Sequence record: OR532803.1
Source: Klebsiella phage RCIP0009
DNA length: 64,000 nt
Reading direction: 5' to 3' (one strand)
Shown: positions 32,434-33,671 of the stretch, one piece after another
Position numbering within the stretch: the stretch's first letter is position 1
Layout: each line of letters begins with the position of its first letter
Made by a program: the position numbers and the translations under genes
The notes under the pieces: generated by a model
The model's database searches: none
What the model was told of the DNA's origin: nothing
What the model saw: only the letters and a program-made list of their open reading frames with translations

Positions 32434-33495
32434 TCAAGCAACCCCCGTAAAGGCGTTTACTATCTGGAAATGATCATCAAAGAATTCCCCTTGTCGTTGC
32501 ACGACCTCATGCATAGGTAGCCAGAACGCGTCTGCTGCATCATCAGCACCGCCCATGATACGAGGCAATGAACCATCGTTATTAGGTTCGAGCTTGATAT
32601 ACTGTGCTACAGTCGGTTTTGAGAAGTACACCGAACGTTTCGGATGATCGAACAGCATCGAATTACGGATAGAACCACGAATAACCTTTTCAGGTACTTT
32701 AATTCGTACTTCTTCCAGCAATTCACGGATCGCGCAATCAAGGAACGTTTCATTACCGTTTTTGTGTCCACCCGGAAGCGCCAACGCATCTTTACCAGGC
32801 GCAAACTTACGACGAATTACTAACACGTTGTTATTACATACGACCACTGAATCAGCCGTGCAACAGTTCAGAGAATCCGGATACGGATATTTTTTGAACT
32901 TGTCAATCTCTCGTTGCCAGTGTGTATCTTCATGGGACAAACGTTGGAATTCTTTTGTTTGTGTCCATTCATCGATAAAGGAAACCGTAGTGCTAGGCGC
33001 ATATTTTAACAAATCTTCGTCCCAGCCTTCATGGTGTTCCCAGATAATTTTGCGTAAATTGGTCGAGGACAGATCCTGATCTCCAACCTTCACAGGTTCA
33101 ACCGGAATATGATTCCATCCGAATGCTTTAAGCCAGTAAGAATCTTTGTCTTTTTCGTACCCGACGATCGCAATTCGATCATTTCGAGTTTCATCGATTG
33201 CCATACGAACACGGGATTTCCATTTTTCCTCGTTATAGAGGTAATCCGGAATGTACGCGAATTTGATTCTGGCTGCATCTTCAACATCAAGTTTGCAGAT
33301 AGACCAGCGAGTGATCATTGCTTGACGCTGTTTAGCGGTCAATGGGTTTAATGTGTTCGGATATGCATAAGCAGAACCGATCAGAATGTAAACCGTATCA
33401 GCAACAGCAAGGGCTTCCCTTACCATTTTCTCATGACCATAGTGAAAAGGTTGAAAACGTCCAATTACTACAGCTTTATCATATTTGTGTTTCAT
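32434..33495 (-). CDS. bifunctional NMN adenylyltransferase / Nudix ADP-ribose pyrophosphatase (NadM/NatV-like)
   Basis: N-terminal cytidylyltransferase motif VVIGRFQPFHYGHEKM. C-terminal Nudix box GGHKNGNETFLDCAIRELLEEV. Confidence 0.75.
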   Translation of the reverse strand: MKHKYDKAVVIGRFQPFHYGHEKMVREALAVADTVYILIGSAYAYPNTLNPLTAKQRQAMITRWSICKLDVEDAARIKFAYIPDYLYNEEKWKSRVRMAIDETRNDRIAIVGYEKDKDSYWLKAFGWNHIPVEPVKVGDQDLSSTNLRKIIWEHHEGWDEDLLKYAPSTTVSFIDEWTQTKEFQRLSHEDTHWQREIDKFKKYPYPDSLNCCTADSVVVCNNNVLVIRRKFAPGKDALALPGGHKNGNETFLDCAIRELLEEVRIKVPEKVIRGSIRNSMLFDHPKRSVYFSKPTVAQYIKLEPNNDGSLPRIMGGADDAADAFWLPMHEVVQRQGEFFDDHFQIVNAFTGVA

Positions 33496-33671
33496 AACGT
33501 GCTCCACGTTTAAAGGTTAATCATAAAACAGACGCAATTATCAACACACCAAACAATCCACCAACGAAACCAAAGAATAGTGAAATGAGTATAGTCAGTA
33601 CGATCTGTTTTATGTTCATTATAGTATTCTCGTTTTAGATGTCAAGCCCCCAAAGAGGGGGCTTTAAAACA

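Follow-up and report, generated by a model that had tools for sequence, protein, structure and literature searches.

The closest described system is the NadV-NatV pair of Vibrio phage KVP40, in which NatV joins an NMN adenylyltransferase (NMNAT) domain to a Nudix domain (Lee, Li & Miller 2017, cited through PMC11845039; Osterman et al., 10.1101/2024.02.11.579819). This pair forms the pathway called NARP2, defined by the presence of Nampt and Nmnat homologues in one phage genome, and 94% of Nampt-encoding phages in fact also encode an Nmnat (Osterman et al., 10.1101/2024.02.11.579819). With the KVP40 pair present, defence by type I Thoeris and by DSR2 is abolished, and NARP2 raises NAD+ also in cells that have no defence system (10.1101/2024.02.11.579819). 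In KVP40-like phages Nampt is switched on immediately after infection of ordinary hosts (PMC5107563). Two other pathways, NARP1 (Adps and Namat) and NARP3 (a NadR-like protein and PnuC), share the same outcome, a phage-driven resynthesis of NAD+ that counters NADase defences.

Closely related two-domain enzymes also exist in bacteria. Those of Synechocystis (slr0787) and Francisella tularensis (NadM) belong to the NadM-Nudix family, whose bacterial members serve housekeeping NAD salvage and the recycling of ADP-ribose rather than infection. In the genus Slopekvirus, all Klebsiella phages studied in a 2025 paper encode enzymes that lead from nicotinamide to NAD+; its authors, like those writing before 2024, read these enzymes as an AMG that serves redox reactions and ADP-ribosylation (PMC11845039). 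NAD+ restoration and defence evasion have been shown only for the KVP40 genes; in the literature we found no Slopekvirus NadV/NatV pair that had been put to a biochemical test or challenged with a defence system.

Here we follow up a natV gene in Klebsiella phage RCIP0009 (OR532803.1), of which a stretch of 64,000 nucleotides, hereafter the window, was analysed. Work on phage therapy for Klebsiella makes use of Slopekvirus phages. The first-pass annotation had recognized the two-domain gene and, seeing no Nampt gene beside it, had proposed a partial NAD+-reconstitution pathway. We find instead that natV is very probably the NMNAT/Nudix half of a complete, unlinked two-gene NARP2 (NadV and NatV), a set that its relatives' sequences suggest to be standard in Slopekvirus. 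That natV is half of NARP2 in this genus is already known.

The natV gene and its product

The open reading frame claimed at 32434..33507 is present, on the minus strand, and its limits can be refined as follows:

32434..33495 (stop codon included), minus strand: natV, encoding a 353-aa protein predicted to be a bifunctional NMN adenylyltransferase / Nudix ADP-ribose pyrophosphatase-type enzyme
33502..33505, minus strand: GGAG Shine-Dalgarno of natV, read from the sequence; the starts annotated in relatives agree with it

Translation almost certainly begins at the ATG of 33495..33493, 12 nt inside the GTG-started frame, because this ATG, read directly in the sequence, lies 6 nt downstream of the GGAG, because the GTG (33507..33505) taken as the start earlier overlaps that same Shine-Dalgarno, and because the 353-aa form is the one used by all annotated relatives.

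The NMNAT-Nudix architecture claimed for the product holds: the N-terminal HxGH motif and the C-terminal Nudix box are both intact, and profile searches agree. Pfam places a CTP_transf_like domain at residues 14-83 (1.1e-10) and a NUDIX domain at residues 219-344 (9.8e-13). The (H/T)xGH motif is HYGH (residues 18-21, within GRFQPFHYGH) and aligns with the motif of the solved structures 2qjo and 2qjt. The second ATP-binding motif, ISSTxxR, is found as LSSTNLR (SSTNLR being residues 143-148), which aligns with FSSTAIR of slr0787. The Nudix box itself is GHKNGNETFLDCAIRELLEEVRI (residues 243-265) and contains the catalytic REx2EE box.

NatV is collinear over its full length with both bacterial enzymes, slr0787 (2qjo, 6.8e-52) and Francisella NadM (2qjt/2r5w, 1.6e-43): its residues 1-350 align with residues 3-338 of 2qjo, and its residues 4-347 with residues 6-342 of 2qjt. 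The HxGH, SSTxxR, DYxYxxxxW and Nudix REx2EE regions are conserved among the three proteins, and in all three the usual glycine of the Nudix box is replaced. NatV differs from the two bacterial proteins in being phage-encoded and in scoring below the NCBIfam equivalog cutoffs.

Family searches lead to the same assignment. All nine of the best NCBIfam matches are NMN or NaMN adenylyltransferase models; the first six belong to the PRK05379 series of full-length bifunctional NMNAT/Nudix models, the best of them (1.5e-76) aligning residues 5-356 with positions 10-354 of its 354, and stand-alone archaeal or NadM-type NMNAT models follow. PHROG 395 also matches over the full length (2e-100). With full-length matches of this order in NCBIfam, PHROG and 2qjo, the pattern is not a product of chance. 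On sequence grounds, then, the gene product is a NadM-type bifunctional NMN adenylyltransferase/Nudix hydrolase, NatV, with both activities predicted. A PADLOC scan of the protein gave just a weak generic Nudix match (PDC-S07, 9.8e-05) and nothing for function.

Several GenBank records already name the gene "bifunctional NMN adenylyltransferase/Nudix hydrolase", and many others labelled "cytidyltransferase" or "hypothetical protein" could be upgraded to bifunctional NMNAT/Nudix (NatV). Beyond correct annotation the assignment has little significance, as NARP2 is published and its presence in Slopekvirus reported.

Relatives of the window and the position of nadV

A 3.1-kb piece around natV shares 99.9% identity with Klebsiella phage vB_KpnM-VAC66 (MZ612130; a Slopekvirus of 178.5 kb in the Straboviridae) and, among the matches listed, 99.2-99.8% with KP27 and about 20 other Klebsiella/Raoultella Slopekvirus records. 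The NatV protein of the window is 100% identical to VAC66 QYC51263.1. Identity varies along the window: over positions 1-25000 the best records are just 95-98% identical, and over positions 39001-64000 they reach 99.4-99.6%. Judged by these matches, the window belongs to a mosaic Slopekvirus (KP27/Miro-like, T4-like) and represents about one third of a genome of about 176 kb.

As the first-pass annotation had stated, the window contains no Nampt gene. A Pfam scan of ten large ORFs (335 to 738 aa) revealed no phosphoribosyltransferase and identified an RNA ligase 1, an ATP-dependent DNA ligase, baseplate and tail proteins, a VWA protein, a PIN-PhoH protein, a radical SAM/SPASM protein, the gp5 lysozyme and an RlaP-like nucleotidyltransferase. 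A tblastn search of the window with the NadV protein of the lineage returned nothing below E=1.0. Together, the ten-ORF Pfam scan and this search (best E=1.0) rule out a hidden, fragmented or pseudogenised Nampt in the window.

The genome that carries the identical NatV does encode the partner:

48044..49477 of VAC66 (ORF58; QYC51091.1): nadV, 477 aa, annotated as nicotinamide phosphoribosyltransferase

On NCBIfam PRK09198 the VAC66 protein reaches 463.7 bits, which exceeds the curated cutoff of 405, and full-length alignments with solved NAMPT structures give E=2.9e-104 (bacterial) and about 6e-87 (human). To place the gene relative to the window, coordinates were mapped by the gp5 gene (window 61533..63302 = VAC66 3115..4884), by which window position 64000 corresponds to about 5.6 kb in VAC66. 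On this map VAC66 nadV lies about 73 kb away from natV, about 42 kb outside the window on its right-hand side. At such a distance nadV is out of reach of a 64-kb window with natV at its centre, and since its expected position lies outside, its absence from the window is uninformative.

The two genes also travel together. We searched 50,697 phage records by tblastn with each protein and tallied the matches by identity band:

At least 80% identity (Slopekvirus): NatV, 112 records; NadV, 112 records
60-80% identity (related Enterobacter/Cronobacter/Citrobacter T4-like phages): NatV, 64 records; NadV, 67 records

By these banded record counts natV and nadV co-occur almost one-to-one in the lineage. 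The accessions PQ187642, OP617746 and PP889462 are common to both hit lists, and the gaps between NatV and NadV counts are compatible with partial records such as W9-2 (88.6 kb), W8-3 (74.4 kb) and phiKp_9 (140.9 kb).

The idea of a partial pathway is therefore not supported: it is an artefact of the window edge, because nadV lies about 42 kb past that edge in a near-identical genome and because the genes co-occur across the lineage. Of the two ways out that had been proposed, a Nampt lying elsewhere is borne out by the same two observations. The other, a supply of NMN from host PncA/PncB, is biochemically flawed, for in the Preiss-Handler pathway PncA/PncB make nicotinic acid mononucleotide (NaMN), not NMN. 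For the mosaic phage studied here we infer the presence of nadV from its relatives, and the chance that the gene is truly absent is very small.

Distance between the two genes is not peculiar to Slopekvirus. KVP40 is likewise a T4-like phage (Straboviridae) with its Nampt gene in the same genome but not adjacent to natV; neither its NadV nor its NatV gene was found within the first 50 kb of NC_005083. In ValKK3 no Nampt-sized or Nampt-annotated gene occurs within ±20 kb of natV, and for the KVP40-like φGrn1 and φSt2 the accession numbers of the protein pair differ by about 30 (PMC5107563). Adjacency of natV and nadV was never a property of the pathway in T4-like phages, in which the unlinked state is normal. 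In general, when the genes of a pathway are normally unlinked, a partner cannot be reliably called "missing" on the basis of a window that covers only part of a large phage genome.

Pathway assignment, mechanism and alternatives

As references for the KVP40 genus (Schizotequatrovirus) we used ValKK3 for NatV and Vibrio phage XZ1 for Nampt, standing in for the proteins of KVP40 itself. The NatV of the window is 39.7% identical to that of ValKK3 over 348 aa (E=1.6e-71), so that, with ValKK3 as stand-in, about 40% identity separates the system of this Klebsiella-infecting genus, Slopekvirus, from that of KVP40. Over its full length, the NadV of the lineage shares 48.9% identity with the XZ1 Nampt; with the Namat of Erwinia phage phiEa104, which is of the NARP1 type, it shares just about 26%, in two pieces. 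ValKK3 differs in having a second, NadD-like adenylyltransferase near natV, for which tblastn gave no match in the Slopekvirus genome.

The lineage thus combines an Nmnat homologous to the NatV of the KVP40 genus with a KVP40-type Nampt in the genomes of close relatives, and by sequence its gene pair is NARP2. NARP1 can be ruled out: the phiEa104 Adps, the Prs-like ADPR diphosphokinase that defines NARP1 and there sits beside a Namat-clade transferase, had no tblastn match at E<=1 in the whole VAC66 genome and the window, and the transferase groups with Nampt, not with Namat. Nor does the pair correspond to NARP3, in which a NadR-like bifunctional kinase/adenylyltransferase (RNK/NMNAT) acts with a PnuC transporter encoded beside it; NadR models match NatV weakly and over the NMNAT domain only (E 1.4e-06; NCBIfam), and the annotation of VAC66, the only basis in the case of PnuC, lists neither Prs nor NadR nor PnuC.

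The pathway would begin with NadV, the unlinked phage Nampt, which by strong homology is expected to convert nicotinamide and host-made PRPP to NMN. The N-terminal domain of NatV, with its motifs intact, would then join NMN and ATP into NAD+. Its Nudix domain would most likely split ADP-ribose into AMP and ribose-5-phosphate, as characterised NadM-Nudix enzymes do, and host Prs could turn the ribose-5-phosphate back into PRPP. Such a route differs from the direct rebuilding of NAD+ from ADP-ribose that the first-pass annotation had attributed to NadV and NatV, since the input of NARP2 is PRPP and nicotinamide and not directly ADP-ribose (10.1101/2024.02.11.579819). The net effect would be NAD+ that is raised or restored in infection, which would offset NADase defences (Thoeris, DSR, SIR2-HerA, SEFIR), and NadV and NatV could also supply the phage's own NAD+ needs. 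The enzymatic activities and early expression are predictions here, as is the counter-defence role, which is proposed by analogy with the experiments on the KVP40 homologues.

Several other readings of the locus deserve consideration. One concerns the enzyme itself, whose N-terminal domain might be a nucleotidyltransferase of a generic kind, cytidylyl- or other, that is not specific for NMN, a possibility that had been raised at the outset. Its sole Pfam match is indeed the generic CTP_transf_like family, "cytidyltransferase" is the name of PHROG 395 and of many GenBank records of the gene, and NatV falls short of the NCBIfam equivalog cutoff of the PRK05379 series (best 257.9 bits, against 397). 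We attribute this shortfall to divergence, as by its sequence NatV is a divergent phage clade of the NadM-Nudix family, in which a preference for NMN over NaMN is predicted. When profile searches were run on this point, they gave NMN adenylyltransferases for the N-terminal domain. Models of CoaD, FAD synthetase and citrate-lyase ligase score at least 40 orders of magnitude worse (Pfam, NCBIfam); the nine NCBIfam models at the top of the list are all for NMN/NaMN adenylyltransferases, six of them full-length bifunctional ones; the two enzymes with which NatV is collinear over its full length are solved and biochemically characterised; and natV co-occurs genome-wide with a Nampt gene. A generic transferase is for these reasons barely credible. 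It is also very unlikely that the pathway is truly partial, the phage having kept NatV and lost nadV, with NatV alone turning host NMN, supplied for instance by turnover of the NAD-dependent LigA or by NadR/PnuC salvage, into NAD+. This reading has on its side the lack of a Nampt in the window and the mosaic character of the window, which is identical to no deposited genome, so that gene content beyond it is known only via relatives. Against it stand the matched record counts at 80% identity or above, the nadV of VAC66 and its expected site outside the window, together with the salvage enzymes found in all Klebsiella Slopekvirus phages studied (PMC11845039).

A variant of this loss would give NatV a different task. 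Two further genes of the window could be involved:

36930..37403, same strand as natV: macrodomain protein
53711..54118: NudE-type Nudix protein

If nadV had been lost, NatV, alone or with these two proteins, could form an ADP-ribose-clearing, NMN-scavenging module distinct from NARP2, which we consider extremely unlikely. The purpose of the complete NARP2 pathway is a more serious matter. It might act as a general metabolic NAD+ booster and not primarily as an anti-NADase counter-defence, a view that fits the rise of NAD+ under NARP2 even without a defence system (10.1101/2024.02.11.579819), the AMG interpretation that authors gave before 2024 and still give in PMC11845039, and the expression of Nampt at once after infection of ordinary hosts by KVP40-like phages (PMC5107563). 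The direct abolition of Thoeris and DSR2 defence by the KVP40 pair (10.1101/2024.02.11.579819) speaks the other way, and we hold the mainly metabolic reading to be somewhat unlikely; one role does not preclude the other, and nothing in the sequence tells them apart.

The region upstream of natV

Between natV and the SPFH gene upstream of it, three features stand out:

33618..33645, minus strand: putative sigma-70 promoter, 12/12 match to the consensus TTGACA-16-TATAAT, about 120 nt upstream of natV
33644..33664, minus strand: GC-rich hairpin AAGCCCCC-tcttt-GGGGGCTT, immediately following the SPFH stop
33521..33619, minus strand: annotated hydrophobic 32-aa mini-ORF, between the promoter and natV

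The site at 33618..33645 is the sole 12/12 match, and the total of promoter-like matches in the region equals the number expected by chance from shuffled sequence, so that the weight of this site comes only from its perfection and position. It suggests early transcription by host RNAP. A scan upstream of nadV gave a best site of 10/12, 1.5 kb upstream, with a match count again equal to the shuffle expectation. KP27 records annotate promoters and terminators somewhere inside the matched 3.1-kb region.

A riboswitch for NAD+ or another ligand in the natV leader of about 110 nt was considered and rejected: the leader had no Rfam match at E<=1, and its fold was not more stable than those of shuffled sequences (z=-1.2). 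The hairpin at 33644..33664, whose 3' arm overlaps the -35 hexamer of the promoter, has no T-tract and was not called by the terminator scan; it may be a terminator or an mRNA-stability element. The ATG of the mini-ORF overlaps the -10 box, and the mini-ORF may be just leader sequence.

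Promoters and leader upstream of natV

The bifunctional NMN adenylyltransferase/Nudix gene natV is preceded on its own strand by four features:

33521..33619 (-), hydrophobic mini-ORF of 32 aa (MNIKQIVLTILISLFFGFVGGLFGVLIIASVL), annotated in relatives
33644..33664 (-), GC-rich hairpin of 8 bp, arms AAGCCCCC/GGGGGCTT, directly past the SPFH stop codon
33672..34598 (-), SPFH/Band-7 membrane protein gene (profile match 4.1e-19), immediately upstream of natV
34658..35080 (-), DUF5856 protein gene (profile match 6.4e-26), upstream of natV and past the SPFH gene

The perfect sigma-70 promoter of natV is embedded in this arrangement at both ends. 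Its -35 hexamer is overlapped by the 3' arm of the hairpin, which the terminator scan did not call because it lacks a T-tract. At the other end, the mini-ORF ATG (33619..33617) overlaps the -10 hexamer, and natV transcripts from this promoter would therefore start downstream of that ATG. Either the mini-ORF is not a real gene, or it is translated from read-through transcripts only. Further upstream we found two more sigma-70 sites, each matching 11/12 positions: one directly before the SPFH gene (34650..34623) and another (34800..34773) within the DUF5856 ORF, whose product is named 'Dps-like' in the annotated relative vB_KpnM-VAC66 (VAC66).

Genes related to ADP-ribose and NAD+

Two further genes of the window bear on ADP-ribose:

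36930..37403 (-), macrodomain protein, 157 aa, on the natV strand (Pfam Macro 5.2e-07; PADLOC DarG 4e-07)
53711..54118 (-), second Nudix hydrolase, here stand-alone, annotated NudE-like, 135 aa (Pfam NUDIX 1.8e-14)

Together with the Nudix-bearing NatV, the window thus holds three ADP-ribose-related genes. The macrodomain protein, which matches ThsA_Macro weakly and is labelled 'RNase III inhibitor' in VAC66, may be an enzyme that removes ADP-ribose, such as an anti-DarT or an ADPR-signal hydrolase.

In Vibrio phage ValKK3, of the KVP40 genus, a second, NadD-like adenylyltransferase (positions 21676..22302 of its sequence, annotated nicotinate-nucleotide adenylyltransferase) sits three genes downstream of natV; a tblastn search with this protein against the Slopekvirus genome returned no counterpart.

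Other genes and mosaicism of the window

Five more genes were assigned:

23870..26086 (-), VWA-domain protein (VWA N-terminal), 738 aa, 'proximal thread matrix protein' in VAC66
28200..29111 (-), C5 cytosine DNA methyltransferase (match 1.8e-95)
29607..30614 (-), RlaP-matching protein, 335 aa (Pfam RlaP 3.3e-12)
40494..41840 (-), PIN-domain and PhoH ATPase fusion, 448 aa (PhoH 6.9e-35; PIN_4 6.5e-15)
46312..47574 (-), radical SAM/SPASM-domain protein, 420 aa

RlaP, which the protein at 29607..30614 matches, is a nucleotidyltransferase of the DNA polymerase beta family from an RNA repair pathway, and the 'thioredoxin' label that it carries in VAC66 is probably a misannotation. Homing endonucleases neighbour two of these genes in VAC66: one is annotated as adjoining the methyltransferase, and an opposite-strand GIY-YIG gene overlaps the 5' end of the radical SAM/SPASM homologue.

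Compared with all deposited Slopekvirus genomes, the window is a mosaic. In its left third (1..25000) even the best records share just 95-98% identity, the natV region (31500..34600) reaches 99.9% identity to VAC66, and the right third (39001..64000) is 99.4-99.6% identical to P-KP2 and the RCIP phages. Such segment-wise variation in best-match identity indicates recombination among co-circulating Slopekvirus phages.
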